Positions 396 to 64,000 of a stretch of DNA of 64,000 bases are shown here, one piece after another. The number at the start of each line of letters is the position of its first letter. Within the stretch, counting starts at the first letter, position 1. The position numbers were made by a program, and so were the translations under genes. The stretch is from IMG/VR virus record IMGVR_UViG_3300006802_000087, positions 11,824 to 75,823 of that record; one strand, given 5' to 3'. Below the pieces are notes generated by a model that saw only the letters and a list, made by a program, of their open reading frames with translations, did no database searches and was not told where the DNA came from. The stretch is from a virus.

Positions 396-2123
396 ATGAG
401 AATAACAAAAAGACAACTAAACTTACTAATCGAACAATACCTTTTAAACGAAGCAGTGCATGATAAAGTTGCTAACCAACTAGGTATAACAGATCCTGAA
501 AGAATAGAGCAATTGAGAATTGCTTCTGAAAAACCACACAGTTTGCAAAAGCCTGAATTGTTATGGATAGGCAAGTATTTTACTACCTCTGAAGGTATGC
601 AAACAAAAGAGCCGATAGAAGATATTGTGGGATCAATTAAGTCTCTAAAACAAAATAAGTCAGCTTTGATAAGGAGGGGAAGTGCCACTAATTTATCAGA
701 TTACGAATCACCAGGTCAGATTAATATTGCTGTTTCCTTATCCCGTGGATTTGTAGATATCAGTCAACTAAGTGAACAGGTCGACGTTCTATATGAAGAT
801 GAAGATTGGACACTTTATATGCCACACTCAAGGGAAGCTTCCTGCACTATTGGGAGAGGTACCTCATGGTGCACTGCAATACCGGGGCCTGGTAATAATC
901 TTTTTTATAACTACGTAATCGGCGGACGAGCGATACTTTACTACTTAGTCAAGAAGAAAAAAGAAGAAAATGAAGGCCCAGCAACAACTCATTTTTCACT
1001 AGGTACAATAGGGGGAATAATTCCATTTCCGAAAGAAGGGGAAGGGAGCGGTCACATTGTTGTTGATGGTAGCAATATCGGTCTATCCAAGGCAAGATTC
1101 TTAAGTTCTGTAGGAGAGCAACTAGGCAATCAGCTGATATCAGTAATAGAGCAACATTCAAAGCAAAACAGGAACAATCATCCAGCAAAAAACAAAGTAA
1201 TGGAGATGTTAAAAAATCCTGCTTTGTATGGGGTAGAAATAAGAGGCAAGTCTATAGATGCAAGATACGATTTTACTGGAATGTTAACTAGTACGTACAG
1301 AAACATGATGGAATCGAATAAAGTAACAAAAGAGGAAGATAATTTAATAGCTGATGTATTTACTAATCCGGATAATGATTTTCATAAATTAATTGCTGCT
1401 GCAACTGAAATCAAACAAAAAGATATCAATGCCTATGAAACAGCTGTAAAATCAAAAGATACAGCACAGATGCAAAAATACGGCAAAATATTTGCAGACG
1501 GTGCAACTATTAAAGAAGCTGAGTATGCAATTAGAAGCATAGCCGAAGACCCGTCTTTAGATGAATCAGGAACGAGTGGTTATAGATTCTGTAAGAATTT
1601 AGATAAATTATCCGGATCGATTCCTTACTATTATTATCAAATGGTTGAAAGAATGGCAAATGACACAGCAATTGCATGGCAGTCCAAGACACCTGATGAG
1701 GATTATGTAATAGAGACTGATTTAGAAGTTACGCCTAGTATCAGATATTATATTGAAGAGGATCCGTCTATTAATGGTATAGAAAGCATGTTAAATAAAT
1801 ATTTTGATGAATTTATAGAAATGCTAGGGGTTTATCACGCAAATATACTAATAGGCCAAGGATACTGTGTTGTTCATGATCCGGAAGAACATAATAATAC
1901 AGGTCAGTTACATCACGAAAACGCTGGACTGCCGGTTGCATATATCGAAGACTTTATAGAAGCAACAAGTGATGATGATTATGCGTTGTGGTGGACCAAT
2001 GATCAATACCCAGAATATCGATATGAACCCTTTACAAGTAGTGAAATACAAAACTATATGCGAGGTAACTTTTCTCTAGAGTTTGTTGATTGGTGCTCCA
2101 TGCGTGGATTTACTTTTACATAG
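396..2123 (+). CDS. MKIT-leader protein with ASC-x-IG-x-GT-x-WCTA domain
   Basis: 575 aa ORF; N-terminus MRITKRQLNLLIEQ; motif EASCTIGRGTSWCTA. Confidence 0.75.
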   Translation: MRITKRQLNLLIEQYLLNEAVHDKVANQLGITDPERIEQLRIASEKPHSLQKPELLWIGKYFTTSEGMQTKEPIEDIVGSIKSLKQNKSALIRRGSATNLSDYESPGQINIAVSLSRGFVDISQLSEQVDVLYEDEDWTLYMPHSREASCTIGRGTSWCTAIPGPGNNLFYNYVIGGRAILYYLVKKKKEENEGPATTHFSLGTIGGIIPFPKEGEGSGHIVVDGSNIGLSKARFLSSVGEQLGNQLISVIEQHSKQNRNNHPAKNKVMEMLKNPALYGVEIRGKSIDARYDFTGMLTSTYRNMMESNKVTKEEDNLIADVFTNPDNDFHKLIAAATEIKQKDINAYETAVKSKDTAQMQKYGKIFADGATIKEAEYAIRSIAEDPSLDESGTSGYRFCKNLDKLSGSIPYYYYQMVERMANDTAIAWQSKTPDEDYVIETDLEVTPSIRYYIEEDPSINGIESMLNKYFDEFIEMLGVYHANILIGQGYCVVHDPEEHNNTGQLHHENAGLPVAYIEDFIEATSDDDYALWWTNDQYPEYRYEPFTSSEIQNYMRGNFSLEFVDWCSMRGFTFT

Positions 2124-2142
2124 GGTAAATAGTCTGTTTTTA

Positions 2143-2171
2143 ATGTAATATCAATTAAAACTATATATAAT
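2143..2171 (+). promoter_or_regulatory. RTGTAA-N17-TATAAT promoter upstream of tmRNA
   Basis: ATGTAA 2143-2148, 17-nt spacer, TATAAT 2166-2171. Confidence 0.75.
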
Positions 2172-2181
2172 AAAACTATAC

Positions 2182-2569
2182 GGGCCCGTAATGGCTTCGA
2201 CGGAATAGAATCAAGGGGAGAATGCAAGCAGGGAAGATACGCCCTTAACAGTTCAAATTTTATAGTTGCAAATAATAACGCACACTTCGATTCAGTAGCA
2301 GTAGCTGCTTAATTGACGCCGGTATCTCTTCCGGTGCAAAACAAGAGGTTAGTCAGATGGGTGAGACGAAAAATTATAAGGGAGTCTAGCGGACTTTGCC
2401 GACACCTAAAATGGTTATCCACGTGGTATGTGGTGGAACTCAAGGTTACCTAGAGTTGGTGGAAAGAGGTGGCTATCCTTGTTATCAGGAGAAAAACGAT
2501 AACTAAGCTTGTGAACGACTCAAACTAAGACTATTGCGGACGCGGGTTCGACTCCCGCCGGGTCCACCA
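2182..2569 (+). ncRNA. ssrA: tmRNA; tag peptide ANNNAHFDSVAVAA* (2268-2312)
   Basis: GGGCCCG/CGGGTCC-ACCA acceptor stem with G3.U, TTCGAC D-region, GGTTCGACTCC T-arm, resume codon GCA and tag ending AA-stop. Confidence 0.95.
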
Positions 2570-2623
2570 TTTTTTTGATTTTTCATCATGATCTGTATAA
2601 TTATAGATAAAAATGAGGTCATA

Positions 2624-3466
2624 ATGAAAATAACAAGAAGTCAATTAAGACGATTAATAGAAGGAATGATCGGATATCCGGACAAGCCTCCTGTAAATGC
2701 AAAAAAACACCTGTCGAGCGACCAGTTTGGCCCTAAGTTAGGCGGCATGCTAAGATCAGATGACCCTGCTTTTCGTAATCAAGGTATTAATTTAGGTGCA
2801 ATCCTAGGTGATGACGTACTAGATGTTTTAGACAACATGCCAACATCTCAAATCGACTCTTTTATTGACAGTGGTGAAGGTTCCTTGGACAAAAAAGAAG
2901 CGCTATTTCAGTCAGTTTTAGAAAATGCAGAATCATTGTCACCATGGAGAGGCAAACAAGTCTCTTCATATTTAGTAATAGGATATGGAGATGAGTTTGA
3001 CTTATTAATTGACGGTGATATTCTCACAGACATTTATGAAACTATAGCTGATGGTCGAGATGCTGAGGCTAAACAAATTGCATACGACTATTTAAATACA
3101 GAATTTTTAAATTCAAATCAAAAAATTGCAAATTGGTATAATAGTAATGTTGCCAGTGATCAAAATTTTCAAGGTTACTCTTCTTTTGCAGACTTTTACT
3201 TTAATCAAAAATTTGACGATATTCACATTTATGGAATATTACCATATGAATTTGATGTAGCTGGGTGGAATCGATATACTGCAGATAAAACTTTTAGAAT
3301 TTATAAGAAAGGATTACCAAGTATTACTCGTTCAACCGGTCCTGAAACTCGTAGACAAGTATATATACTTGCTAAAGCATTTGGTTTCCCATCACAAGGA
3401 TTTGGTAGCCACCCCGTTGATTTTTATTTTTATGATCAGGAAAAAGGCGAAATTGTGATTGGATGA
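2624..3466 (+). CDS. MKIT-leader hypothetical protein
   Basis: MKITRSQLRRLIEG start behind GAGG; ATAATTA at 2597. Confidence 0.75.
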   Translation: MKITRSQLRRLIEGMIGYPDKPPVNAKKHLSSDQFGPKLGGMLRSDDPAFRNQGINLGAILGDDVLDVLDNMPTSQIDSFIDSGEGSLDKKEALFQSVLENAESLSPWRGKQVSSYLVIGYGDEFDLLIDGDILTDIYETIADGRDAEAKQIAYDYLNTEFLNSNQKIANWYNSNVASDQNFQGYSSFADFYFNQKFDDIHIYGILPYEFDVAGWNRYTADKTFRIYKKGLPSITRSTGPETRRQVYILAKAFGFPSQGFGSHPVDFYFYDQEKGEIVIG

Positions 3467-3567
3467 TATCATTGTTATTTATTATATTTTAATTTTTACT
3501 AAATTCTAAAGATAATTACTAATATCGTATTAAAAAATAAACAGTTTGTAGCGGGGTTAGATCATAT

Positions 3568-4011
3568 ATGAAACTTACAAAAAGAAAACTTAGAAAAATA
3601 TTACTCAAGGAAATGGACCTCATGGGAATGGGAATTGACATGGGACAAGTAATGCAAGCTGTACAAGGATTACTTGCAGCTGGATTATCTTTGGGTGCTG
3701 TTATGGTAGCACTCTTATCAATGTTGGGACCGGTCATGTTTAATGGATTTATTGATGGTTATTACAGAGGCTTATTTTCAGAAAATGAATTTAAGCGATT
3801 TGTAGAATTGCAAAAAACTGATCCTGAAGCAGCAAAGAGATATGCCGATCGTATTATTACTACGAAAGGATATAGTGCACCATCTGAATCAGAATATGGT
3901 CAGCCTGTTCATCTAGCAACAGGTGAAGTCGATGCTAGACATGCACGTGACTATACTGCACAGCATGGTGATATCGATTTTGACCCATATGACGATGATC
4001 TAGATTATTAA
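3568..4011 (+). CDS. MKIT-leader protein with hydrophobic segment
   Basis: MKLTKRKLRKILLKE; GLLAAGLSLGAVMVALLSMLG. Confidence 0.7.
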   Translation: MKLTKRKLRKILLKEMDLMGMGIDMGQVMQAVQGLLAAGLSLGAVMVALLSMLGPVMFNGFIDGYYRGLFSENEFKRFVELQKTDPEAAKRYADRIITTKGYSAPSESEYGQPVHLATGEVDARHARDYTAQHGDIDFDPYDDDLDY

Positions 4012-4067
4012 ATTTTAATTAATCAATTTACACAAGATAATTAAGGCATGAGGAAGGAGAGTTCTTT

Positions 4068-4643
4068 ATGTCTTTTTTATTGTCTGAAGGTTTGAGTTAT
4101 CACATTGATAAGTCTTTACCGATTAGAGAGAGTGTATATCGTCCGGGCTCTGAGATGTTTTTTCATTTTATCTCTGAAGCGAAAAGATGTTACCGCCAAG
4201 GACTGTTTGAGGTTGATGCATATGATCATGACCTGTTAATGTCAGACATAGGAGAATACGGTCTGTGGGAAGGTAATGTCGTCCCCTTAGATTATCCTAT
4301 TCCTGCTGAGTTAGATACTCTAAATGAATCTGAGGAATTCGTGCCTAACTTAAATGATGCTGAATACAAAGGTAAAAAAGTAAAACTTAATAAGCCTCAG
4401 CGAGGTGGTTCAAAAAAGTTTTATGTCTATGTCAAGAATCCTAAGACAGGTAAGATTAAAAAAGTATCTTTTGGCGCAAAAGGCATGTCAGTCGGTCTCA
4501 AAGATCCCAAGCGTAGAAAATCATTTGCAGCTCGTCATAAGTGTAGTGAAAAGAAAGATAAGACTAAGGCAGGTTATTGGGCGTGTCGAATTGGTAGATA
4601 CCCGCATCTTTTTGGCGGAAAAACAAAATATACATGGTGGTAA
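4068..4643 (+). CDS. Conserved phage protein with basic C-terminal domain
   Basis: KKFYVYVKNPKTG..KKVSFG, RRKSFAARHKC, AGYWACR motifs; GGAG RBS. Confidence 0.7.
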   Translation: MSFLLSEGLSYHIDKSLPIRESVYRPGSEMFFHFISEAKRCYRQGLFEVDAYDHDLLMSDIGEYGLWEGNVVPLDYPIPAELDTLNESEEFVPNLNDAEYKGKKVKLNKPQRGGSKKFYVYVKNPKTGKIKKVSFGAKGMSVGLKDPKRRKSFAARHKCSEKKDKTKAGYWACRIGRYPHLFGGKTKYTWW

Positions 4644-4646
4644 GAT

Positions 4647-5063
4647 ATGGCACTAAATCATCAAGTACTTCGTGGGTTAGGTTATGTTCCTTCATATCAA
4701 GCATCTGCTGTACCTTTTTTGACTAGCTCTTTAACAATCCCCGTATCAACATCTGAACCGATTGTGATTAATTTTAATACTGTCACAAGATTTATTACAG
4801 TTACGAATACAAACGCTATTGATGATCCAAATTATCCATTGCGTTTTGGATTTTCTAGAAATGGTATCAAAGGTGTAGAAAACAATAATTATATTGTTTT
4901 AAACAATGGCGACTCATTTGAAGGAGCGTTTAAAGTTACTAGTATTTTTTTATTAAGTGACTCTTCTGTTTATTCATCGTCGGGTTCTATAGTTGCAGGA
5001 TTGACTGATATACAGTCTTCACATTTAAGCCACAATTGGTCAGGTTCAATAGGGGTGGGATAA
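4647..5063 (+). CDS. Probable virion structural protein (beta-rich)
   Basis: S/T/G-rich 138 aa ORF coupled to the next gene. Confidence 0.5.
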   Translation: MALNHQVLRGLGYVPSYQASAVPFLTSSLTIPVSTSEPIVINFNTVTRFITVTNTNAIDDPNYPLRFGFSRNGIKGVENNNYIVLNNGDSFEGAFKVTSIFLLSDSSVYSSSGSIVAGLTDIQSSHLSHNWSGSIGVG

Positions 5064-5064
5064 T

Positions 5065-6600
5065 ATGGGATTTACTAACTTACATGGAAAACAAGGAAAA
5101 TCAACAAATAATCCTACAATTGGTTTTGGTGGCGTAGAAGTAAGTCAGCTGGTGCCGGTTGCACAAGGAGACTTCATATACGGAATACAGACGCCTCAAA
5201 CTTTTGTAACTGCATCTTTTGTAGGCTCTTCTGTTACAGCTGCAAATGGCATGGCAGTATTAAATTGTGGCACTGATGTATCCGGCTCTGCGGTATTAAA
5301 TTTAAGAAGAGGTATCAAATATAGGCCCGGCCAGGGTTCAATTATGAGAGCTACAGCTCTTTTTGATACACCGGTAGAAGATAATCTGCAATTGATCGGT
5401 CTAGCAAACAACGAAACCGGTTACTCATTTGGTTATCAAGGAACAGACTTTGGGATACTCCACAGAGAAACAGGTCAGCTAGAAATAAGAAAGCTAACCA
5501 TAACTGCCGGTGCAACAAATGGGGAGACAGTTACGGTTACTTTAGACGGTGACGCATTTACTTTTGATATTGATATTGAAGGGACTACTTCAACTACACA
5601 AACAGCTTATAAGTTGTCTTTGGAAGATTATACTCAGCTAGGAGAGACGGGATTTCTGGTTGATGTTGTGGGTGCTGATGTGTATTTTATTTCTGGTAGG
5701 TGTAATCCTGATTTGACTGGAACGTATTCTATTTCAGGAACCGGTACCATCGCCGGAACTTTTACACGTGTATTAGCAGGTGCTAATCATGAAGAAACGT
5801 TTATTCCGACTGGTTCTTTTAATATTGATAAACTAGACGGTACCGGTCCGTCAGGGATGATCATAAATCCTCAAAGAGGAAATGTATATGAAATTGACTT
5901 TCAGTATCTCGGTTTTGGCAACGCAAGATTCGCCGTTGAAGATCCCAATACAGGAAGATTTACTAATTGTCATATGATTAAAAACGCAAATAATCGTATA
6001 ACTCCGGTCCTTAAAAATCCTAATGTTCAAATTAGATTAGAATCTTCAAATAGCGGAAACACTAGTGATGTGTCAGTCAAGTCTGCATCTATGTCAGGTT
6101 TTATTTCTGGAGAGATAATAAAATTAGATCCAAAATTTGCTCAAAGTTTTGCTTTTACGAATCTTAATAAATTAACCTATCACCCGCTAGCAATGATTAA
6201 AACAAATAGAATTCATAAAAATCAATCTTGTTTTGGAGAGTTTGATATATTAAGGTTGGCAGGTTCAAATGAAGTAAGTTCGAAAACTTTAATTATTGGA
6301 TTCTTTTTGGGTGCAGAAATAACAGGAAATGTTAACTACCAATTTGTTAACGATGAAAATAGTATTGTTTCAATAGCAACTTTAGACCCAACAACAAACT
6401 CACCTCCGAATACAATTAGTAATTTAAGTGATATTGTTCCTTTCCATGAAATTGTTGTAGGTCCTTTGGCGGGTGTATCTGAAGATTTGGACAAACTTGA
6501 ATTTATATTTCCTCCTGGTGTTCCGCTTTTAATTGCTGTTAAAGCTACAAATACTGGTGTTAATGGCTCAGTTTCTATTAACTGGTTTGAACAGCAATAA
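5065..6600 (+). CDS. Probable virion structural protein (beta-rich)
   Basis: 511 aa, G/T/N-rich; YRPGQG and IDFQYLGFG motifs recalled from phage structural proteins. Confidence 0.5.
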   Translation: MGFTNLHGKQGKSTNNPTIGFGGVEVSQLVPVAQGDFIYGIQTPQTFVTASFVGSSVTAANGMAVLNCGTDVSGSAVLNLRRGIKYRPGQGSIMRATALFDTPVEDNLQLIGLANNETGYSFGYQGTDFGILHRETGQLEIRKLTITAGATNGETVTVTLDGDAFTFDIDIEGTTSTTQTAYKLSLEDYTQLGETGFLVDVVGADVYFISGRCNPDLTGTYSISGTGTIAGTFTRVLAGANHEETFIPTGSFNIDKLDGTGPSGMIINPQRGNVYEIDFQYLGFGNARFAVEDPNTGRFTNCHMIKNANNRITPVLKNPNVQIRLESSNSGNTSDVSVKSASMSGFISGEIIKLDPKFAQSFAFTNLNKLTYHPLAMIKTNRIHKNQSCFGEFDILRLAGSNEVSSKTLIIGFFLGAEITGNVNYQFVNDENSIVSIATLDPTTNSPPNTISNLSDIVPFHEIVVGPLAGVSEDLDKLEFIFPPGVPLLIAVKATNTGVNGSVSINWFEQQ

Positions 6601-6607
6601 AGAAGTT

Positions 6608-6982
6608 ATGATGATGCGTCGAAAAAGAAAAAAGAAAAAGTTATGGAGTAAACAGTCTCTTTACGAAAGAAAAGACGGAAGTAAAGTTCTCATGGACAGC
6701 ACGTGGGAAGTTGCAATGGCTAAAAGGTTAGATCATCTTAAAATAGTGTGGGAAAGACGAGAAGATATGAAGCTACCCTATCTGTCAAAGACAGGACGAA
6801 AAAGAAACTATATTCCTGATTTTTACCTACCTGATCATGATATATATATTGAGGTGAAAGGTTACTGGACAGATGCTGCAAGGTATAAAATGAACGCTGT
6901 TCAAGATGCAAACCTAGTAAAAATTGTTATACTGGAATCATTAGAAGCAGTTAACAAATTTACAAGATGGAAGTTAAAATGA
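6608..6982 (+). CDS. PD-(D/E)xK endonuclease (TnsA-N / T7 endonuclease I-like)
   Basis: DSTWE ... YIPDFYLPDHDIYIEVKGY. Confidence 0.8.
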   Translation: MMMRRKRKKKKLWSKQSLYERKDGSKVLMDSTWEVAMAKRLDHLKIVWERREDMKLPYLSKTGRKRNYIPDFYLPDHDIYIEVKGYWTDAARYKMNAVQDANLVKIVILESLEAVNKFTRWKLK

Positions 6983-7698
6983 AAATAACAAGAAGACAAT
7001 TAAGACGATTAATAAACGAAGTCCGAATAAAACCAAGCATTCCTAATATACCTAGTGATGATGCCTTAGGTAAGGTTGATGACTTGGCGCGACAGGAAGA
7101 ATTTCAACCTAGCGCTGATTCTTTAGCAGGTGCTTTTGGATATCCTGAAGATCGTAGTTATTCGGCCGATTTAAAAGGTTACGATAATCTTGAAGCAGAG
7201 ATGGGTCGATATAAAATTGAAAAATATCTACCCGGATTCCTTAATTTACCCGAGGATGTAATTGAAGTAGTAGCGGAATTTGTGTTCTTGTCTGAAGTTC
7301 CCGTATTACATATACAACTTGATGAAGACATGGTTGAGCATGAATTAGGTGAAGACACTTATCATAGAGGCACACACTTTCAAGAAGTGCAAAAGCCGGA
7401 AAATGCTGAAATAGTCGCGATGACTAATGATTTTCGCGAGAACCCTAAAGCTCATGATGTTAAGTTTTATTATATCTATGCAGCTCATGGCTCTTACAAT
7501 GGATCAGATCCGTTTGCAAGAATAGACCCGCATGGAATGGGCGACGCTCAAACAGGTTTTCATGATGGTTTCAGAGAAGAATATCAAAAAGTTACTACAA
7601 ACCGCGCGCATAGAATTTCAAGTTTAGCAGTAGAGGAATCGTTTATTGAAATGATGAGAGCCTTGAGGCCTGATCACGAAGAAGAAGTAATTAATTGA
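6979..7698 (+). CDS. MKIT-leader protein; N-terminal part paralogous to 61783..62271
   Basis: MKITRRQLRRLINE; RIKPSIPNIP vs RIKPSVANIP. Confidence 0.75.
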   Translation: MKITRRQLRRLINEVRIKPSIPNIPSDDALGKVDDLARQEEFQPSADSLAGAFGYPEDRSYSADLKGYDNLEAEMGRYKIEKYLPGFLNLPEDVIEVVAEFVFLSEVPVLHIQLDEDMVEHELGEDTYHRGTHFQEVQKPENAEIVAMTNDFRENPKAHDVKFYYIYAAHGSYNGSDPFARIDPHGMGDAQTGFHDGFREEYQKVTTNRAHRISSLAVEESFIEMMRALRPDHEEEVIN

Positions 7699-7705
7699 GG
7701 TGAAC

Positions 7706-9142
7706 ATGAAAATAACAAGAAGACAATTAAGAAGATTAATAAATGAAACAATGTTACAGCCAACTTTCTTTTTAAATATGAAAGCGCGCCAAGAGTTTCT
7801 ACCTAAGATCGTAGCAGATCCGAATGTACACCCAAAGATTAAGGATCTGCTAAAGAGTGGAGAAGAATCACAGACCAATCAAGGTGTAGAACTTTTGAAG
7901 TCTTTGAATCCCGAGTACATAGAAGAATTAGAATCTTATGAGTCACACCAAGATTCAATAGAATACGATAGAGAATTTGAAGACCAACGAGACAATCTGT
8001 TTTTTACCCGCATAAAGAGTATCGTTGACAAATATAAGTATGACATGGGCATTCCACTTAAGTCGGATATTTTAACGGTTGAAAACATATCCAAAGATAC
8101 AGCAGCAGGTAGTTATACTGATCGTTCCAGTGGGCGTCGTGCAAAAAGGTTTACGCACAAAAGACTTCACGGTGCAGCAATTTATGCTACTGACAAAGCG
8201 ACGCTTGAGCGAATAGCGCGAGAGCTAGACTCAGAAAAAGACATGGGTGGAGAACAGGCATACCATGGTGTTGGCGGAGCAGGCCAACCTCTACTTCCTT
8301 ACATAAACGATTATTATCTGACAGCACTTGATTCAAATCTTAAATATAAAAATGAAATGCACAAGAAGGGAAAGTATGAGTTAAAAGTTTTTCCAGCTAC
8401 TCCTGATCAAAGAATATATAAGCAACCGACACATCGCAAACTAAATGTGAGTATGTATGAGACGAAAATAAAAAGAAGACAATTAAGAAAATTAATATCA
8501 GAGTTTTTACATGAGAACACAAACACACAAAGATATCAAAACACTCCGTTAAGATCAAGAACTGTAGATAGTTTAATTAAAGACATTGAAATCGCTAAAA
8601 AAGAGTTTGGTAAAGTTAAGAAGCAAGATGGAAAGCATAGTTTATTTGACCTGGCTATGACAATGTTAGTTACAAGTGACACTTCTTATAGTAAAGGCGG
8701 CGGTGAAGGAAAAATGATAATAAATTTTGGTACCAGCTCAAGTACTCCAAGAAAAGTAGTAGCTCAGTTAGTTAAATATCAAGATAAAAATGGAAAAGAG
8801 TTCGAATCAATTGGCGTAAGGGATTTTAAATCAAACAAAGACTATGAGTTAGTCGACTTAAATAAATCTGGCCCTTATATAGATATACTGTTTGGTATTG
8901 ACGGTTTACAAACAGTTTTTAAAGATAAAGGTAGATATACTAAAGTTTATAATCATCTATACAAAGAGTTTGAAAGAAACAATATTGAACCAAAACAGTT
9001 TGAAACGCCTGGTGAAAAATTTAGAAGAGAAAAAGAAGCAAATTTTGTTAAAGACAAGGATTATTATCTAGGTAAAAATCCCCATAAAAGACCGTGGTAT
9101 TTAAAAACAGGAATTCCGGATGGTGTGACAGACCTGTTTTGA
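7706..9142 (+). CDS. MKIT-leader protein with a second, internal leader
   Basis: MKITRRQLRRLINE and internal TKIKRRQLRKLISE near 8462. Confidence 0.75.
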   Translation: MKITRRQLRRLINETMLQPTFFLNMKARQEFLPKIVADPNVHPKIKDLLKSGEESQTNQGVELLKSLNPEYIEELESYESHQDSIEYDREFEDQRDNLFFTRIKSIVDKYKYDMGIPLKSDILTVENISKDTAAGSYTDRSSGRRAKRFTHKRLHGAAIYATDKATLERIARELDSEKDMGGEQAYHGVGGAGQPLLPYINDYYLTALDSNLKYKNEMHKKGKYELKVFPATPDQRIYKQPTHRKLNVSMYETKIKRRQLRKLISEFLHENTNTQRYQNTPLRSRTVDSLIKDIEIAKKEFGKVKKQDGKHSLFDLAMTMLVTSDTSYSKGGGEGKMIINFGTSSSTPRKVVAQLVKYQDKNGKEFESIGVRDFKSNKDYELVDLNKSGPYIDILFGIDGLQTVFKDKGRYTKVYNHLYKEFERNNIEPKQFETPGEKFRREKEANFVKDKDYYLGKNPHKRPWYLKTGIPDGVTDLF

Positions 9143-9183
9143 TCTGTAAATCAAATTAAAAAATAGAATACAAAGAGATAAAA

Positions 9184-9615
9184 ATGAAAATAACAAGAAA
9201 ACAATTAAAAAAATTAATATCAGAGGCATATCAGCCCCCTATGGGCAGATCAGTTAGCGGAATTGCAAAGATTGACATGCAACCAGGTAGAGGATATGTT
9301 ATTGAAGATAAACATGGAAATATTACAGAAACTGATAATCCTGTTATGATCTTAAATGAGCTTATGAGTCAAGGACATGATAGAGTATACGATAAAATGA
9401 CAGAAGAGGTTGAAGATATTGAGACATATATCGAACAACTTGAAATGTTTATGGGAGACTTTGTAGAATATAGAGATACGGATGTCGATCCTTTGCTTGC
9501 TCATGACCCGCTAGATATTATGTCAAGAGACTTTGACAAAGATTATGATGTTGACTTGGATGTTTTCGATGAAGAGAGTGAAGAAGAATCTAGTTTTGAC
9601 GATGATTGGATATAA
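9184..9615 (+). CDS. MKIT-leader acidic protein
   Basis: MKITRKQLKKLISE. Confidence 0.75.
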   Translation: MKITRKQLKKLISEAYQPPMGRSVSGIAKIDMQPGRGYVIEDKHGNITETDNPVMILNELMSQGHDRVYDKMTEEVEDIETYIEQLEMFMGDFVEYRDTDVDPLLAHDPLDIMSRDFDKDYDVDLDVFDEESEEESSFDDDWI

Positions 9616-9627
9616 GAGATTAATGCA

Positions 9628-10113
9628 ATGAAAATAACAAGACGACAATTAAAAAAAATATTAATGAGAGAGTTTAGAGACACAGGATCGTATCGTAACT
9701 TTGACTTTGGATCATCATCAGGCGGAGGACAAATACCTCCTACACAACCGCCTAACGGCGGCGGTGGCGGAGGTGATGACGGTGGAGGCTTCGGAGGTTT
9801 CAGCGGAAGAAATAACAATCCTTGTGGGTTTGGAAGCCCAAAAGGTGATTACTATTACGATTTAGTATTTAATACTTTTGGTTCGTGGATGTCATCTAAT
9901 ATGAAGACTAATCCAAATGATAATGAATACGATAACTACTTAAGTCATTTAAAGCGGATATATCCAGAATTCACAATGGATATGGTTTCTAATGAGTATA
10001 ATGAATTTTTTGAATTAATCATGACAGCAATTGCTGAATATGCATGTGCAAATAATATTGAAGATGTTGAATCAATATACTTTAATCCTATCCCTGCAAT
10101 ATTAGATTTTTAA
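9628..10113 (+). CDS. MKIT-leader protein with Gly-rich linker
   Basis: MKITRRQLKKILMRE. Confidence 0.75.
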   Translation: MKITRRQLKKILMREFRDTGSYRNFDFGSSSGGGQIPPTQPPNGGGGGGDDGGGFGGFSGRNNNPCGFGSPKGDYYYDLVFNTFGSWMSSNMKTNPNDNEYDNYLSHLKRIYPEFTMDMVSNEYNEFFELIMTAIAEYACANNIEDVESIYFNPIPAILDF

Positions 10114-10170
10114 CTTTAATTTGTAAATTTTATAAAATTATCTATAATAAACTATTGAAGGAGTTAATAA

Positions 10171-10590
10171 ATGACCAGTGCGGCAGGGATAATAATTATT
10201 AGAAACGTTAATAATCACCCAGAATTCTTAGGATTAATAGCATTAAAAAAAGATAGAAAAAGAGTTGGTGGGACATATGATATTCCGAAAGGCCATGTTG
10301 AATCAGGAGAAGATCTTTTAGAAGCAGCTAAAAGAGAATGTTTTGAAGAGTGTGGTTTAAACCCAAAAATTATTAGTGAACCATATTCAAATGGAAAAAT
10401 AACTGTGTGGCTAGGAATAGTTGATGAAGAAGATGAAGTTATAATAAAAACAAATCCTGGAACAGGATTGCTAGAACATGAAGGTTATGTGTGGTTAATA
10501 CCAGAAGATATGAGACGTAACTGTTTAAGTTATTTACTAGATCATATCCGATGGGCTGAAAAAAGAGCATGGGAATATTTTAAATTATGA
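10171..10590 (+). CDS. NUDIX hydrolase
   Basis: Nudix box GHVESGEDLLEAAKRECFEECGL. Confidence 0.9.
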   Translation: MTSAAGIIIIRNVNNHPEFLGLIALKKDRKRVGGTYDIPKGHVESGEDLLEAAKRECFEECGLNPKIISEPYSNGKITVWLGIVDEEDEVIIKTNPGTGLLEHEGYVWLIPEDMRRNCLSYLLDHIRWAEKRAWEYFKL

Positions 10591-10961
10591 AAATTACTAG
10601 AAGGCAATTAAGAAAGATAATAAGCGAAAACTTTAAAGGAAGCAAATTTACTGATGAAATAGGTCGATATTTTAGTGTTGAAAAAGCTGTGTCATTCGCA
10701 GAAAAAAATAAAGATAAATATTTTATTCCTAATTTTCCAGTAGAGAATATTAAGCATGATTTAAAATACTGGCAAGGCGATGAAAAAAGAATGATGAATG
10801 CTGACACTAGTTTTCCTTTATTAGTAATTATAGAAAATGGATGTCTAAGCGTAGCAGATGGCTTAAACAGGCTTTATAAAGCAGTCAACGTGGAAGAAAA
10901 AGAAACCATAGATGTGTACATTGTACCTAAAGAAGAACTGTTGGAGTTTGAAATAGAATGA
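10587..10961 (+). CDS. MKIT-leader ParB/sulfiredoxin-like protein
   Basis: MKITRRQLRKIISE; ADTSFPLLV..VADGLNRLYKA. Confidence 0.65.
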   Translation: MKITRRQLRKIISENFKGSKFTDEIGRYFSVEKAVSFAEKNKDKYFIPNFPVENIKHDLKYWQGDEKRMMNADTSFPLLVIIENGCLSVADGLNRLYKAVNVEEKETIDVYIVPKEELLEFEIE

Positions 10962-11809
10962 AGATCACAGGAAGCACACCGTTAATCGCAATTGACGATG
11001 ATGGACGAATTTGGGCAAAGTTAGAAACTCATAACAGAACCGGTTCTGTTAAAGACAGAATGATAGAATATATTTGCGATCGTGCATTAGCAGAAGATAA
11101 AATTATTCCTGGAGAAACCAAACTGATTGAGGCTACTAGTGGTAATACCGGAATCGCATTAGCTTCTTATGCTGCTTCTATAAATTGTCAGTGTGAGATT
11201 ATCATGCCTTGCAATATGTCTCAGAAACGAAAAGACATGATGAAGGCATACGGCGCAGAAATAATTGAAGTTGGACCTAATGAATTCCAAAAAGCAATAG
11301 AATTAAGAGATAATAGATTAAACGAGTTTAATTCTAGTTATTTTTCACCCTTACAATTTAGTAACCCATTAAATGTTGAGTGCCATTACACCACAACAGC
11401 ACCAGAAATCCACAGTAATATAAAAGAAACACATTTAAATTGGCATACTTTTGTACATGGCGCAGGAACAGGTGGTACAATGATGGGAATAAAACAGTAT
11501 ATTGACAACAAAGGATTAAAAGTTAAATGTGTTTTAACACAACCTGTTGAAGATAATGCAACACACGGTATCCAGGGAATTAATGACGGAGCAGATTTTT
11601 TACTTGATAGAAATTTAATGGATGAAACTATTTCTATTAAAACAGAAGATGCTATTTTAAGAATGAAGAGATTTTGGAAAGAGAGCGGAATACTTATAGG
11701 TATTAGCAGCGGTGCAAATATTTTAGCTGCTGAAAAGTATGTTGAAAAATATGACCCGAAAGGTGTCGTAGTAACCATACTTTGTGACAGAGGAGAGCGA
11801 TATTTATGA
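10958..11809 (+). CDS. cysK: PLP-dependent cysteine synthase (CysK/CysM family)
   Basis: KLETHNRTGSVKDR, EATSGNTGIALA, GAGTGGT, HGIQGI, GISSGAN, CDRGERYL. Confidence 0.9.
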   Translation: MKITGSTPLIAIDDDGRIWAKLETHNRTGSVKDRMIEYICDRALAEDKIIPGETKLIEATSGNTGIALASYAASINCQCEIIMPCNMSQKRKDMMKAYGAEIIEVGPNEFQKAIELRDNRLNEFNSSYFSPLQFSNPLNVECHYTTTAPEIHSNIKETHLNWHTFVHGAGTGGTMMGIKQYIDNKGLKVKCVLTQPVEDNATHGIQGINDGADFLLDRNLMDETISIKTEDAILRMKRFWKESGILIGISSGANILAAEKYVEKYDPKGVVVTILCDRGERYL

Positions 11810-12846: not shown

Positions 12847-13338
12847 ATGTCACTAGTTATTAATGATACAGCTTATTGGAAAGATGCTGACGGGAAAGAG
12901 CACGATGACCAATTCATTAAAAAAGAAATTAAAGACTATGTTGCAAGAGGTGGAAAGATATTTGTGGGTTCTGACAGTATGCTTTTTCCTAATAAGTGCA
13001 ATTTTGCTGCAGTGATTGCATTTCACGATAGAGATTTAAACATTGCTAGGTATTATTTTAAAAAGATAAAAGCTCAGTCTAAAAAGTATAGAGAGCTTCA
13101 AAAAAAGATATTAGAAGAAGTTTCTCTAGCAATTCAAACTGCTCAGTTTGTTTTAGAAATATGCCCCGAAGCAGATATCGAATTACACATTGACATAGGC
13201 ACAAAAAAGAAAAACGAGACTGCAAAGTTTTTTAAAATGATCAAAGGCTGGGTAACTGGAACTGGGTTTGATTTAAGGGTCAAACCAAACAGTTGGGCGT
13301 CTAGTTTAGCAGACGGTCACACAAAAGGAAAAAGATGA
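12847..13338 (+). CDS. RNase H-like YkuK-family protein
   Basis: IFVGSDS, EEVSLAI, ELHIDIG, KPNSWASSLAD. Confidence 0.75.
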   Translation: MSLVINDTAYWKDADGKEHDDQFIKKEIKDYVARGGKIFVGSDSMLFPNKCNFAAVIAFHDRDLNIARYYFKKIKAQSKKYRELQKKILEEVSLAIQTAQFVLEICPEADIELHIDIGTKKKNETAKFFKMIKGWVTGTGFDLRVKPNSWASSLADGHTKGKR

Positions 13339-13786: not shown

Positions 13787-15418
13787 ATGAAAGATTATGA
13801 TATGTTTTTTCCCTACGTTAAACCTAGAAAAGAACAGCGAGATGCAATTGAGTTCGCAATCAAAGCAATTAAAGATAGTGACAAACGATTTGTGATTGTT
13901 GAAGCCGGTACAGGAGTAGGTAAGTCAGCTATTGGATTAACACTTTCTCGTTACCTAGCAAATAATATTCCTGATAGTGAAGGCTATGATCAAGGTGGTT
14001 ATTTTTTAACAACACAAAAAATTCTGCAAAAACAATATGAGAAAGACTTTGGTGGAAGTAAAGGTGAGATGAAATCAATATACTCATCTTCAAACTACAA
14101 ATGTAAGTTTTATCCTCAAAACGATTGTAGAACTACGCATGAAATGATGCGATCGCTAGATGCATCAAAAAATAAAGCGTTATTCAAGTGTTGTGGCGGT
14201 GGTTGCACCTATAAAATTGCAAAGAAAAACTTTCTCGAGTCAAAGGAATCAGTAACAAATTTTCCATATTTTTTGACAGAAGCAACTTTTAGTGGTGGAA
14301 TTACTCCTAGAAAAGTTTTGGTTATCGATGAGGCTCATAATACAGAATCAGTCCTAAGTAGTTTTGTTGAAGTATCTGTAAGTCAATACTTTGCTGAAAG
14401 AGTTGTCAAGTGTAAATGGCCTGATAAAGTAACATCAGTAAACTTTGTTAAGTGGATAGAGAACGTATATCATCCTAAATTACAATCACAAATTATGTTC
14501 TTTGAGAAACAGATTGAAGATCTTGGGATTAAAGATAAAATTAAAGATATGGCAAATATTTCTAAAAAATATGATATGATGAAAAGTCATTCAGATAAGT
14601 TAGATAAGTTTTTAAAAGACTACGATAAAGATAACTGGGTTATGGAGAAACAAGAAACAGAAAAGCGAGGCTCTATAAAGGTTGTTTATAGAGCAATTGA
14701 TATATCAAACTATGCTGAAGAGTACTTGTTTAGACTCGGGCAAAAAATTGTTTTGATGTCTGCTACGATTTTAAATGCCGATGCATTCGCAACTTCGCTA
14801 GGTATTCCAAAAGACCAGTATGAATCAATCAGCATTCCTTCACCTTTCCCAAAAGAAAACCGTCCTATTATTAATGCATCAGTAGGAAGCATGAGTGCAA
14901 AAGCTATTGAAGGTACGCTCCCTCAACTTAAAGAAGCAGTTAAAGCAATCATGGAAGAACACGGAAAAGAAAAAGGAATTATTCATTGTCACACTTATCG
15001 AATTGCAAATTATCTAAAAAAGAACATTAAAGGAAAGTTAGGAAAGAGAATTCTTATACACGATAGTAGTAACAGAGATAACATTCTTAAAAAACATATG
15101 ACTTCAAAAGAGCCGACTGTATTGTTATCGCCGTCCATGACAGAGGGCGTAGATCTCAAGGGCGACTTAAGTCGTTTCCAGGTTATTTGCAAAGTTCCTT
15201 ATCCTTGGTTAGGTGATCCAATTGTGAAAAAACGTATGCATAAGTTTCCTGATTGGTACCCGCTTAAGACTGCCATGACTATAGTCCAATCAGTAGGTAG
15301 AAGTATTAGAAACAGCGAAGACACAGCTGTGACTTATATACTTGATAGTGACTGGCAAAACTTCTATAACAAAAACAAAAGATTATTCTGCGAAGATTTT
15401 AAAAGATTGATTGTATAA
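13787..15418 (+). CDS. DinG/XPD-like SF2 helicase
   Basis: EAGTGVGKS, DEAH, MSAT, EGVD, QSVGRSIR; Cys cluster. Confidence 0.9.
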   Translation: MKDYDMFFPYVKPRKEQRDAIEFAIKAIKDSDKRFVIVEAGTGVGKSAIGLTLSRYLANNIPDSEGYDQGGYFLTTQKILQKQYEKDFGGSKGEMKSIYSSSNYKCKFYPQNDCRTTHEMMRSLDASKNKALFKCCGGGCTYKIAKKNFLESKESVTNFPYFLTEATFSGGITPRKVLVIDEAHNTESVLSSFVEVSVSQYFAERVVKCKWPDKVTSVNFVKWIENVYHPKLQSQIMFFEKQIEDLGIKDKIKDMANISKKYDMMKSHSDKLDKFLKDYDKDNWVMEKQETEKRGSIKVVYRAIDISNYAEEYLFRLGQKIVLMSATILNADAFATSLGIPKDQYESISIPSPFPKENRPIINASVGSMSAKAIEGTLPQLKEAVKAIMEEHGKEKGIIHCHTYRIANYLKKNIKGKLGKRILIHDSSNRDNILKKHMTSKEPTVLLSPSMTEGVDLKGDLSRFQVICKVPYPWLGDPIVKKRMHKFPDWYPLKTAMTIVQSVGRSIRNSEDTAVTYILDSDWQNFYNKNKRLFCEDFKRLIV

Positions 15419-15442: not shown

Positions 15443-16285
15443 ATGAAAATATCTAAACGCAGTTTAAGTATCTTAATAGAACAATTTCTCTTTGAAGACG
15501 AAGATAGATTTAACTTTGGAACAGGAAAAGAAGTACCTTCAGCGAAAGGAGCTATGGGTGCTTTATACTTCATGAAAAATCAGTTTCAAGACGGAACAAA
15601 CTATCTCTTAATGGATAATGAAAGCCTTTATTCACTAGCAGGTGGAGTTAGTAACAAAGAAAATATAAATGAGATGAGTAGCTTTATGCACAATATGCTT
15701 TTCTTAATTTGTTTGAGTGTGATGTCACAAAACAAAATATCAAAACAAGATATTAGAAGAACAGTTGTTATTACTAGTCTGGAAAGATCAGCAGAAGCTC
15801 AATTACAAGCGATGAAAAATAAAGTTAAAATAGCCAAAGATAACGGTCAAGATCCAATTGAAACTGTTGGAAATTTATATTCTCCAGAAGGAGATACCAG
15901 CATGACTCAAGCAGGATTTGAAAATGCAAAAAAAATTATAAGTTTAATTGATCAGGGCGATGATGAGCAAGCGTTAAGTCTGCTTTCTCAAACACCTGTT
16001 TCTCCACATGCTTCAAACAATGCTTTCGATTTTAGAAGCGAAGGAGGTAGAGGGGAAAAAATTGTAAATGCTATTGAAAACTTAAAGAAAAACGGTGTTT
16101 TTAATCAAAACTTAAACTATAAAGTAGAAGATAAAGGAACAAGAAATCAGCATATACACGTTGCCGCAATTAGTGACCCGATCACAGAAAAAGGAAAAAA
16201 TATTTTGGCAAAGCTTAGAGAAGCAAAAAATGAAGCTGCTGCTGAAAATGCATTTAAATACATGGAAAAAGTAGGCGCAATTTAA
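15443..16285 (+). CDS. MKIT-leader protein with M15/LAS-type Zn peptidase motifs
   Basis: MKISKRSLSILIEQ; ITSLERS, SPHASNNAFDFR (H-x6-D), HIH. Confidence 0.6.
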   Translation: MKISKRSLSILIEQFLFEDEDRFNFGTGKEVPSAKGAMGALYFMKNQFQDGTNYLLMDNESLYSLAGGVSNKENINEMSSFMHNMLFLICLSVMSQNKISKQDIRRTVVITSLERSAEAQLQAMKNKVKIAKDNGQDPIETVGNLYSPEGDTSMTQAGFENAKKIISLIDQGDDEQALSLLSQTPVSPHASNNAFDFRSEGGRGEKIVNAIENLKKNGVFNQNLNYKVEDKGTRNQHIHVAAISDPITEKGKNILAKLREAKNEAAAENAFKYMEKVGAI

Positions 16286-18502: not shown

Positions 18503-18822
18503 CAAACGATAGTAACGGCTGGGGTGAATATTCCAAACTTGTTCTAAAAGAACTAGAGACACTAGCACAAGGTATCAAAGATCTCAATGAAAGCCTCAAC
18601 GACATGAAAAAAGAAATGGCTGAGATTCGAGCAAAAGAAGACAAGATCTTGGAATTAAATCGCTGGAAAGAACGGATTGATGAGGTTGCCTCACCCACAC
18701 AACTTAAAGAGCTAAAACAAGAAGTGGAAGACTTAAAGATGTTCCGCACCAAAGCTGTCACTGTTTTTGCTGTTATACAATTTTTGATGGCAGCAGTAGT
18801 ATTCGCCCAGAGGGTTTTATAA
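18499..18822 (+). CDS. Coiled-coil protein with C-terminal transmembrane helix
   Basis: Heptad pattern then AVTVFAVIQFLMAAVVFA. Confidence 0.6.
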   Translation: MTNDSNGWGEYSKLVLKELETLAQGIKDLNESLNDMKKEMAEIRAKEDKILELNRWKERIDEVASPTQLKELKQEVEDLKMFRTKAVTVFAVIQFLMAAVVFAQRVL

Positions 18823-57187: not shown

Positions 57188-57193
57188 AGAATA

Positions 57194-61782: not shown

Positions 61783-62271
61783 ATGAAGATTACACGAAGT
61801 CAACTGCGAAGTTTAATTAAAGAGGCAATTAACGAACACAGAATTAAGCCCTCTGTTGCTAATATCCCGCCGGAACATTTAGATAAAATACACAGTCTTA
61901 TTGATGGCGGTCGGCTAGCGCAGGCACAGTCTTTTATTGATGCATTTGGTGGTGATCCTGATTATGTGGATGATTATATCGCGTATGGTGAGGTGGGTGA
62001 CTTAGAAAAATTAGGAAACAAAGCTTCAGATGTGATTGCCACGATTCCTAAAGATTCCTATGGTTTTTCAAAGTTAAAGGACATGGAACCGGTATACGAT
62101 ATTGATCAGCAGGCATATGATCTAGTCAAATCAAAAATTTTAAAAGATGAACAGGTGGATCCCGAATATTTCGACCGTGAGATGGTTCATAACCGGAGAT
62201 ACTACGGTAATAGAAATAGAGATCCTAGTGTTGATCGATCCGGATATTTTGAAGATGATTTTATTCGGTGA
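61783..62271 (+). CDS. MKIT-leader protein
   Basis: MKITRSQLRSLIKE; ATAATTA at 61755. Confidence 0.75.
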   Translation: MKITRSQLRSLIKEAINEHRIKPSVANIPPEHLDKIHSLIDGGRLAQAQSFIDAFGGDPDYVDDYIAYGEVGDLEKLGNKASDVIATIPKDSYGFSKLKDMEPVYDIDQQAYDLVKSKILKDEQVDPEYFDREMVHNRRYYGNRNRDPSVDRSGYFEDDFIR

Positions 62272-62354: not shown

Positions 62355-62400
62355 ATTTTCTCCGGAAAATTTGAGGAACTTTTAGATAGTTATTATCACT

Positions 62401-62991
62401 ATGAGAATTACGCGCAGACATATAAGAAGATTAATCGAGGGAATGCTTAACGAGATGCCGATGTTGCAACCTGATCTTTTGCCCTCGGGTTTCTATGTTA
62501 CGGTTCAAAAAGATACTTATGTGCCTGACATGTCTGACTGGTTTACCCATGAAGACGGCGGACCGGTCGATCCAATGAAAATGATGATGATTCATATACA
62601 CGATCAGAGTGGAGGAATCAAGGCTGAATTATATATGAGATATTGGACGTCTCGGTATTGTGGAGGAACTTGGGAAGTTTATCGTGCTTATTTAAGAGGC
62701 GCACCTGACGGCACCGGTCCCTTGTTGTATGATATCGCAATGGATATCGCCGCTGATCGTGGGATCATGAGTGATCGGATGACGACGTCTGATGATGCAG
62801 CTAGAGTTTGGGAATATTACCTGGATAATCGGCCGGATGTCATAACTAAGCCTATAGGTCGATGTGTTGGGAAATGGATGAGAGAATTAGCTGAGGGAAG
62901 GCGTCCTGAGTTTTCTGAGTTGAAGTTTATAAAATCGGCAGGATCTCCGAGCATCATCGATGCCTTAGGCGACAAGATACGTTTTGGATAG
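62401..62991 (+). CDS. MKIT-leader GNAT-like protein A
   Basis: MRITRRHIRRLIE; GTGPLLYDIAM..SD..SDDAARVWEYY. Confidence 0.6.
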   Translation: MRITRRHIRRLIEGMLNEMPMLQPDLLPSGFYVTVQKDTYVPDMSDWFTHEDGGPVDPMKMMMIHIHDQSGGIKAELYMRYWTSRYCGGTWEVYRAYLRGAPDGTGPLLYDIAMDIAADRGIMSDRMTTSDDAARVWEYYLDNRPDVITKPIGRCVGKWMRELAEGRRPEFSELKFIKSAGSPSIIDALGDKIRFG

Positions 62992-63009
62992 GTAAAAAGT
63001 GAGTCATAT

Positions 63010-63621
63010 ATGAAAATAACACGAAACTATTTAAGAAGACTTATTGAAGGTGTACTTAATGAGATGCCCGCCAGGCAACCTAGTGGTCTAGACCCAAGTT
63101 TCTATTGGACTGTCCAAAGATTTTCTCTAGACGCAGCTGACGAAGACGAGTGGGACGGCATTACTGAGGGGATTGTTGAAACAGTACATATCACTGGTAA
63201 TATGATCTTGCCAAAATGGGGTGACACTGAGATTGCACATTTACAAATGAAAAAAACAGCCGACTGCCCTCACTGGGAGATCAAGAACGTCTCCGTGCGA
63301 GGTGATAAGTTCTACAAAAATCACGGAATACGACAACCCCAGACGGCAAAAGACCTGGGCCCGATGATGTATGACATTGCCATGGAGATCGCCGGCCTGG
63401 CCGGCCTTATTAGTGACAGTAGTGGGTCTTCTGCTGATGCTCAAAGAGTTTGGAATTTTTATCTAGATAATCGGGCAGGTGTCGATGTCGACGTCACTGC
63501 CCTATCTCCCGGGACTTGCGGCCGCAGAGATCAATTGACTTTCCAGAACAGAGTATATCGAAAGAAGACGGGTGGCCCGAGTATAATTTCTGCCTTAGGC
63601 GATAAGATTAACTTTGTTTAA
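63010..63621 (+). CDS. MKIT-leader GNAT-like protein B
   Basis: MKITRNYLRRLIE; LGPMMYDIAM..SD..SADAQRVWNFY. Confidence 0.6.
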   Translation: MKITRNYLRRLIEGVLNEMPARQPSGLDPSFYWTVQRFSLDAADEDEWDGITEGIVETVHITGNMILPKWGDTEIAHLQMKKTADCPHWEIKNVSVRGDKFYKNHGIRQPQTAKDLGPMMYDIAMEIAGLAGLISDSSGSSADAQRVWNFYLDNRAGVDVDVTALSPGTCGRRDQLTFQNRVYRKKTGGPSIISALGDKINFV

Positions 63622-63731
63622 AGTAAAAAAGTGAGAGCAGCTCCGTGAGAAAATCTCATTATTTCACAAAAATTTCCGGAGAAATTTCGCAAAACTTTAC
63701 CTATGTATACAGTATATAATATGGAGTAGCA

Positions 63732-64000
63732 ATGAAAATTACAAGACGTCAGATAAGACAACTTATCTTACAAGAGGGTTTCCTAGACTTCTTTAAAAGA
63801 GGAGTTTTTCGAGACACCTCTGATCAAGATGAAAAGCAATTAATTACCAATTTAGATGTTGCATACGACGAGGCTGAAAGACAAGGCAGAAAACACAACC
63901 AAAGATACAATGATCAGTGGCCTATATCAGCGATTAAAAGTGCGTATAGCGGCCCATTTGAAATAAAGCATATTTCAGAATTATCGGAAAGTAGTCAACA
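63732..64000 (+). CDS. MKIT-leader protein, truncated by window edge
   Basis: ATG AAA ATT ACA AGA CGT CAG = MKITRRQIRQLILQE, GGAG RBS. Confidence 0.7.
   Translation, partial: MKITRRQIRQLILQEGFLDFFKRGVFRDTSDQDEKQLITNLDVAYDEAERQGRKHNQRYNDQWPISAIKSAYSGPFEIKHISELSESSQ

Follow-up and report, generated by a model that had tools for sequence, protein, structure and literature searches.

Why should 16 proteins with largely unrelated bodies, all encoded in one stretch of viral DNA, open with nearly the same short peptide? The stretch in question, called the window below, is 64,000 nucleotides long and corresponds to bases 11824-75823 of a single 75,823-bp IMG/VR virus record (IMGVR_UViG_3300006802_000087; contig G000). 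The shared leader is 13-15 residues long and follows the consensus M-[KR]-[IL]-[TS]-[RK]-x-x-L-[RK]-x-[LI]-I, with a Glu 1-3 residues further on. Overall, we consider it probable that this leader is an enlarged and fast-shuffling counterpart of the T4 tag for capsid targeting and cleavage. The leader is new in its sequence and scale, and a literature search turned up no paper with its motif, while the principle of a capsid tag is already known from T4.

How well defined is the leader? We have built a hidden Markov model (HMM) from 16 N-termini (first 16 residues each) and searched it in all six frames of the whole 75.8-kb contig. It gave 18 matches of 14-29 bits, all on the plus strand, and the next best score was 7.5 bits. 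Seventeen matches lie at the starts of open reading frames (ORFs), and one is internal (8462-8506, inside ORF 7706-9142). An earlier sequence-only reading of the window had listed 16 leader-bearing starts and one internal copy near 8462, and had proposed such a scan. All 16 are indeed ORF starts (18822 carries the leader after three extra residues, and 63732 leaves the window), the internal copy is where it was said to be, and the scan, with its clear gap in score, adds one N-terminal copy outside the window. That copy lies 1331 nucleotides upstream, in an ORF that is a paralogue of ORF 396. At the DNA level, a degenerate leader pattern occurs 14 times in the window, against 0.06 expected (largest count 1 among 100 dinucleotide-preserving shuffles). 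Past about residue 20 (first 22 residues removed) the bodies are unrelated except for two pairs, namely the upstream copy with ORF 396, and 62401 with 63010. The claim that the bodies differ completely is thus largely right, with these pairs as exceptions. The leader ORFs of the window and the internal copy are given below.

396-2123, plus strand: leader ORF, 575 amino acids, of the subtype ending LIEQYLLNE; 44% identity to the 571-amino-acid leader ORF upstream of the window.
2624-3466, plus strand: leader ORF, 280 amino acids, acidic body; TATAATTAT box 28 nucleotides upstream.
3568-4011, plus strand: leader ORF, 147 amino acids, E at residue 15; a hydrophobic Gly/Ala-rich membrane-like segment follows the leader.
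6979-7698, plus strand: leader ORF, 239 amino acids, ending LINE; body type that is fused behind the N-half module of ORF 7706 in some relatives.
7706-9142, plus strand: two-module leader ORF, 478 amino acids, with an N-terminal and an internal leader; the sole basic body (isoelectric point, pI, 9.2).
8462-8506, plus strand: internal leader copy TKIKRRQLRKLISE, which has ACG where a start codon would be expected and continues the reading frame of the upstream module.
9184-9615, plus strand: leader ORF, 143 amino acids, very acidic (31% D+E).
9628-10113, plus strand: leader ORF, 161 amino acids, Gly-rich; among the few cargo bodies conserved in the relative G001 (63% identity).
10587-10961, plus strand: leader ORF, 124 amino acids, weakly similar to proteins of Erwinia jumbo phages called 'ParB'.
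15443-16285, plus strand: leader ORF, 280 amino acids, plausibly a LAS/M15-like zinc peptidase body; two L/I-x-E sites (LIE, LFE); TATAATTAT box upstream.
18822-20858, plus strand: leader ORF, 678 amino acids, diverged leader after MRK; possible PD-(D/E)xK-like core and long helical tail with a basic leader-like end helix.
26525-27040, plus strand: leader ORF, 171 amino acids, acidic low-complexity start; distant homologue in G001 (28% identity).
37163-37852, plus strand: leader ORF, 229 amino acids, most diverged leader (18 bits); acidic body, basic C-terminal helix.
61783-62271, plus strand: leader ORF, 162 amino acids, LIKE and then INE.
62401-62991, plus strand: leader ORF, 196 amino acids, paralogue of 63010; weak GNAT lead.
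63010-63621, plus strand: leader ORF, 203 amino acids, paralogue of 62401.
63732-64000, plus strand: leader ORF running off the end of the window and of the contig.

Which phage carries these genes? The DNA is part of the genome of a marine T4-like jumbo phage that has not been cultured. The contig is linear, without end repeats, and about 37% complete according to CheckV. Phage records gave no match to 9 kb of the contig in megablast, nor to the ORF 9628 protein in tblastn. Over its first 64 kb, the contig is in synteny with the 133-201 kb region of G001, a viral contig of 202 kb, and the amino-acid identities are 40-84%. The closest cultured phages by capsid protein are distant (Microcystis phage Mel-JY01, 34%; Flavobacterium phage immuto, 45% along two thirds of the capsid protein). 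Among viral contigs, 28 of 5.7-242 kb match a strict leader pattern obtained by back-translation. Those big enough for a completeness check are 18-77% complete, which puts the genome size at roughly 250-400 kb. Relatives in metagenomes derive from marine assemblies, Tara among them. A loose leader pattern was also searched in more distant T4-like phages, and gave no match in immuto or Mel-JY01 and 0 and 2 matches in two huge uncultured phages. From this (near) absence we conclude that the tag is specific to the present clade.

A start-codon-anchored scan has found 17 leader ORFs in the 76-kb contig G000, 28 in G001 (202 kb) and 29 in a further syntenic relative, G003 (237 kb). At least three leader subtypes occur in these three contigs. 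One is cationic and ends LI(N/S/K)E; a second is less basic, has the end IENYLxE and is mostly found on single scattered genes; a third ends IL(M/L)(R/K)EFRD and is that of a Gly-rich protein family.

Is it the peptide or the DNA that is kept? The leader is A-rich, its DNA is near-identical among many cassettes, and cassette breakpoints fall at or inside it. These observations would suit a nucleotide-level feature without any peptide role, such as a translation-initiation enhancer or a recombination site for cassettes. However, the residues are kept through synonymous and cross-family codons. Over the 74 leaders, Leu at residue 8 is encoded by six codons, Arg at residue 5 by AGA, CGA, CGC, CGT and AGG, and residue 4 is Thr or Ser with seven codons in use (ACN/TCN/AGC). 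So many synonymous codons at conserved positions indicate selection on the peptide. In addition, the peptide is kept in internal copies which do not initiate translation, and what is conserved is a periodic pattern of hydrophobic residues together with the Glu. A purely nucleotide-level feature is highly improbable in our view, though the leader may well act in recombination in addition to its role as a peptide.

As to the peptide itself, residues 1-12 bear a mean net charge of +4. The consensus has a hydrophobic moment of 0.72, which about 5% of shuffles match, and other variants are weaker. In AlphaFold2 (AF2) models, the leader is helical and is followed by a low-confidence linker. The sequence-only reading had described a basic amphipathic helix ending LINE/LISE/LIKE; its basic character and its L/I-x-E end are borne out, and its amphipathicity is moderately supported.

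What could such a peptide be for? In T4, the prohead protease gp21 cleaves after L/I-x-E, and the tag that it removes is 10-20 residues long (PMC9026906, PMC5694885). The tag of IPIII comprises its first 10 residues; targeting depends on residues 4 and 7 among these, and cutting on residues 8 and 10 (PMC9026906). In the present contig, [LIVM]-x-E ends at residues 13-15 in 15 of the 17 N-terminal leaders, and many of them show a second site about five residues on. We have counted the motif in the 74 leader ORFs and the 415 other ORFs of G000, G001 and G003. The form [LIVMF]-x-E ends at residues 13-15 in 64 leader ORFs, while this is the case for only 44 (11%) of the others. The strict form [LI]-x-E falls within residues 9-26 in 71 leader ORFs and in 85 (20%) of the others. 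The Glu is invariant within orthologue families, i.e., E13 and E18 in the peptidase family of ORF 15443, and E14 in the family of the N-half of ORF 7706.

A peptide of this kind might also be recognised by a modifying enzyme, for example of the radical-SAM type, or by another sorting machine (secretion, Tat-like), and the T-R-R-x-L stretch is indeed superficially like the twin-arginine motif. However, downstream of the leader there is neither a hydrophobic h-region nor an A-x-A site, ORF 3568 with its hydrophobic segment excepted; polar, acidic or Pro-rich stretches stand there instead. Radical_SAM (PF04055) occurs in one of five large leader-bearing contigs, against four of five for the gp21 protease, and the radical-SAM candidate was rejected for this want of strict co-occurrence. 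We give an explanation of this type very little credence.

Does the phage lineage possess the matching protease? In the 75.8-kb contig itself there is no gp21-type protease (Peptidase_S77) and no capsid gene, and the link to a protease runs through the relatives for this reason. The gp21-like protease that the sequence-only reading had suggested looking for is thus missing from this contig, but it is found in six of 15 leader-bearing contigs (G001, G002, G003, G005, G010 and G015; 86-99 bits), and every one of the three with a completeness of 57% or more is among them. Both syntenic relatives, G001 and G003, encode this protease together with the capsid protein gp23. The head module of G001 keeps the T4 order, with TerL, a portal-sized ORF, Peptidase_S77 (98 bits), several small ORFs, a 490-amino-acid acidic ORF and gp23 (E 3e-77). 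A run of leader ORFs begins directly after gp23 in both G001 and G003.

The acidic ORF directly upstream of gp23 (490 amino acids, pI 4.5 in G001; 494 amino acids, pI 4.4 in G003) stands where T4 has its scaffold protein gp22. It contains 26 [LI]-x-E sites in G001 and 24 in G003, against 10.1 and 9.0 expected from composition, which is about 2.6-fold, and it ranks second in density of this motif among the 192 ORFs of G001 and the 202 of G003. The ORFs that flank the protease in the two contigs are likewise enriched. By analogy with T4, such crowding resembles the pattern of a core that is chopped by the protease. A scaffold of pI 4.4-4.5 would also be a natural partner for a leader of charge +4.

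The same data bear on another possibility, namely that the leader is never cut. It would then be a docking or DNA-binding helix which binds scaffold, portal or DNA, or keeps enzymes inactive, and its carriers may be parts of the virion that are not ejected. The charge of the first 12 residues fits such a helix, as does the basic C-terminal helix that two of the families have as well; the persistence of internal copies in fusions would mean that an N-terminal position is not essential. But conservation, once the hydrophobic positions are set aside, is highest at the Glu and at the L/I that precedes it by two residues, with E13 or E14 invariant within families. A cleavage site needs an invariant Glu and a mere basic helix does not, and L/I-x-E is crowded in the scaffold-position protein too. 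In T4, an E-to-D change abolishes cutting and leaves targeting intact. We consider a retained helix unlikely, though less so than the two alternatives above.

For a tag of the T4 kind, the course of events may be pictured as follows. During prohead building, the short cationic helical peptide at the N-terminus would dock its cargo onto the acidic scaffolding core. The gp21-type protease would then cut after the Glu of L/I-x-E at residues 13-15, often also at the second site, about five residues further along. Once released, the proteins would remain inside the head until they pass into the host together with the DNA. Among the cargo would be a peptidase of the LAS type, a nuclease resembling PD-(D/E)xK enzymes and numerous small acidic proteins. 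The cargo genes may be exchanged, gained and lost at the leader boundary, some of them being fused in frame into two-module proteins.

Two further proteins of the window are rich in the same motif.

4068-4643: conserved basic leaderless protein, 191 amino acids, phrog_7595, inside the leader cluster.
18499-18822: coiled-coil-like protein, 107 amino acids, with a hydrophobic C-terminus, directly upstream of ORF 18822.

The former has seven [LI]-x-E sites against 1.5 expected, and its homologue in G001 is equally enriched; it may be another substrate of the protease. The latter is among the proteins with the highest densities in G000 and in G001.

How do the leader genes evolve? In the syntenic part, a homologue in G001 or G003 exists for five of 13 leader bodies (median identity 28%), in comparison with 32 of 39 other ORFs (median 69%). 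In G001, four leader genes are inserted between two backbone genes that adjoin in the window. ORF 7706 allows a closer look. None of its relatives were found among the viral contigs, but a metagenome scan did find some. Its C-half exists in one relative as a stand-alone protein of 230 amino acids with a normal Met-initiated leader (88% identity), and its N-half stands alone in most relatives (231-254 amino acids). The form in the window connects both halves in one reading frame via ...SMYET-, with ACG replacing the start codon. The same junction fuses the N-half to a 6979-like body in the relatives P0021 and P0025, and to a 9628-like body in locus L067. That is, there are three in-frame fused forms in which the internal leader is intact and the second modules differ. 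Two of these forms are identical over the first eight leader residues and then diverge, and the crossover is thereby placed within the leader. The gene behind the conserved N-half module varies over 18 metagenome loci, with at least 10 different bodies, all of which begin with the leader.

Judging from these loci, the leader boundary is a site of cassette exchange; the shortness of the tag, and a coding sequence that hardly varies from cassette to cassette, would make such exchange possible there. An internal leader that stays intact is expected if the protease separates the modules, as we infer it does. Going one step further, the leader might be the joint of a modular effector-shuffling system. 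Crossover between phages would then take place in its near-identical coding sequence, whereby cassettes of injected cargo are swapped, and the in-frame fusions with their internal leader would be polyproteins, to be split by the head protease once packaged. A single peptide would combine the roles of address, cut site and recombination joint, and the ejected proteins would number about 40 per genome. We put forward this extended form only tentatively, as it is possible rather than probable.

What, then, are the cargo bodies? With Pfam, the leader proteins gave no match at E <= 0.01 (only a far sub-threshold LEA_4 line on the 18822 protein), and with PHROGs only two families, both of unknown function. 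Sequence searches of the PDB with four leader bodies found nothing. The protein of ORF 396 gave a weak phrog_28193 match only, and no Pfam or PDB sequence match.

For ORF 15443, eight homologues keep the leader, and H189, D196, H237 and H239 (H-x6-D, H-x-H) are invariant in the nine sequences. Its AF2 model has a mean predicted local distance difference test score (pLDDT) of 71, and VIA-align matched it to the Hedgehog N-domain (Z 7.0), VldE (6.5), the T5 L-Ala-D-Glu peptidase (5.3) and a Zn DD-peptidase (4.5). Foldseek returned nothing significant for the model, and no Pfam match was found. A cell-wall peptidase of the LAS/M15-like type is a plausible assignment. The transglycosylase carried by the head-borne gp16 of phage T7 is a precedent for a wall hydrolase delivered from the head.

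For ORF 18822, D176, E179, D205, E216 and K218 are invariant in seven sequences, and the last three of these make up a D...E-x-K motif. The AF2 model is of low confidence (pLDDT 57), with core elements in alpha-beta-beta-beta order, and the top VIA match is weak, i.e., the restriction endonuclease 3ndh at Z 6.4 over residues 61-266. The model hints weakly at a PD-(D/E)xK-like nuclease. ORF 10587 matches phrog_17560 at 8e-12, and tblastn aligns it with phage proteins annotated ParB at 35% identity over 85 amino acids (E 2e-4). For ORFs 62401 and 63010, the atlas gave viral hypothetical clusters, one with Acetyltransf_1 on 14% of its members. The remaining bodies are small and mostly acidic (pI 4.1-5.7), some of low complexity, and 3568 has the membrane-like segment. 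Of the labels given by the sequence-only reading, M15-like and PD-(D/E)xK find backing in invariant motifs together with weak fold matches, while ParB and GNAT are still weak leads without a Pfam match.

Apart from these assignments, the proteins of ORFs 18822 and 37163 carry a basic, leader-like helix at the C-terminus too (20790-20858 and 37790-37852); across the 18822 family this helix is conserved. One is reminded of T4 Alt, whose two ends are both processed (PMC9026906).

Where do the leader genes stand? The cluster at 396-10961 surrounds a gene that is itself leaderless.

5065-6600, plus strand: homologue of a cyanophage 'virion structural protein' (phrog_1645, E 7e-26; about 29% identity to Synechococcus phage S-T4 and others).

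The following genes lie between the leader genes, other leader genes standing singly among them.

10171-10590: NUDIX hydrolase.
10958-11809: pyridoxal phosphate (PLP)-dependent enzyme (PALP, 195 bits).
12847-13338: RNase H-like protein.
13787-15418: XPD/DinG-like helicase.
29327-30574: ATP-dependent DNA ligase.

Between 38000 and 61000 of the window, G+C climbs from about 35% to 45-48% and many small ORFs are found; leader genes resume at 61783. Upstream of the window, contig bases 1-11823 begin within a GroEL-like gene and include a sigma-70-like gene. This part is conserved in G001 at 133-146 kb, with 45-80% identity.

An ATAATTA/TATAATTA box lies 23-36 nucleotides upstream of six leader genes in the window; with a few other genes counted in, the [TG]ATAATTA boxes are 23-57 nucleotides from the start codons.

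2596, 3511, 4036, 15414, 16781, 26502, 37128 and 61754: [TG]ATAATTA boxes, upstream of the six leader genes and a few others.

A similar box, AATAATTA, precedes the scaffold-position gene and a tail gene in G001. The strand bias of the box is weak ([TG]ATAATTA, 13 vs 9 and 30 vs 19; ATAATTA, 20 vs 20 and 52 vs 33). The box is a candidate promoter; as a late promoter it was kept as a hint only, for the bias is weak and the box also precedes leaderless genes.

Taking all this together, how firmly can a tag of the T4 kind be argued? The sequence-only reading had proposed a portable tag of this sort, and several results agree with it: the L/I-x-E end, gp21 and gp23 in syntenic relatives, a motif-crowded protein in the scaffold position, a run of leader ORFs after the head genes, and hypervariable cargo. 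A number of points weigh on the other side. The leader and the T4 tag are unlike in sequence, since the N-termini of T4 ipI, ipII and ipIII score below 0 bits with the leader model. The leader is cationic while the T4 tag is slightly acidic, so the docking partner may differ. T4 IPII and IPIII are basic, whereas most leader bodies are acidic, and forty or so cargo species per genome would be far beyond T4. Many leader genes stand among genes of DNA metabolism, and several are preceded by a sigma-70-like TATAAT box. The contig's own portion of the genome (about 37%) holds neither protease nor capsid gene. In the head module of G001, PHROGs gave no scaffold annotation, and for the scaffold-position ORF neither Pfam nor PHROGs had a match; this protein is a candidate scaffold from position, charge and motif density. 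Finally, as the phage is uncultured, scaffold docking, cleavage, packaging and injection are steps that we infer. On balance, a T4-type targeting and cleavage tag is still the explanation that we favour with good, though not full, confidence.

If this explanation is true, phages of this clade inject tens of different proteins with their DNA, from a pool that turns over fast between relatives. The cell-wall peptidase, the nuclease and the small acidic proteins, which could be anti-defence factors, would be the candidate injected set, and the internal-protein strategy of T4 would here be extended to the scale of an effector arsenal. The leader plus L/I-x-E would provide a simple rule by which the injected proteins of uncultured phages could be listed from nothing but their sequences. 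It would also provide a second, unrelated packaging tag for engineered protein delivery in T4-type capsids.

How does the leader compare with known systems? In phiKZ-like giant phages (phiKZ gp175, 201phi2-1, SPN3US gp245), a protease related to gp21 processes dozens of head proteins, cutting behind a Glu; a large load of protein leaves the head along with the DNA, and there are paralogues with identical N-termini (PMC5694885, PMC10052503). Their sites are of the form S/A/G-x-E and their propeptides mostly exceed 100 residues, whereas the present leaders have L/I/M two residues before the Glu, are 13-15 amino acids long and belong to a lineage with T4-type capsid genes in the relatives. A head propeptide of the phiKZ type was ruled out on the L/I/M before x-E in nearly all leaders and on their length.

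In T-even phages, the internal proteins are diverse and only the capsid targeting sequence (CTS) is conserved; IPI* inhibits the restriction enzyme GmrSD (PMC3012670). Like the T-even internal-protein loci, the loci described here replace cargo genes between close relatives while tag and flanking backbone stay constant. They differ in that at least 10 bodies are found at one site and the crossover apparently falls within the tag, and an anti-defence role of the bodies is only a candidate.

The closest counterpart is the T4 CTS itself, which is carried by IPI, IPII, IPIII and Alt and removed by the prohead protease gp21 (Mullaney and Black 1996, reviewed in PMC9026906, PMC3012670, PMC5694885). 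T4 ipII and ipIII start with MKTYQEFIAE, which has no sequence likeness to the leader; the latter would be a functional analogue and not a demonstrable homologue. While the T4 CTS has 10 residues and occurs on a handful of proteins, the leader has 13-15 residues, is strongly cationic, and is present about 17 times per 76 kb and 28-29 times per contig of 200-240 kb. Only the leader family includes in-frame two-module fusions that hold an internal tag. On the other hand, both are short N-terminal peptides that end in L/I-x-E on otherwise unrelated proteins. The leader genes are scattered among metabolism genes, as are T4 ipII and ipIII, which adjoin denV, e and nudE. In both cases, the lineage has a gp21-type protease and gp23, and the cargo is diverse and fast-evolving while the tag is conserved.

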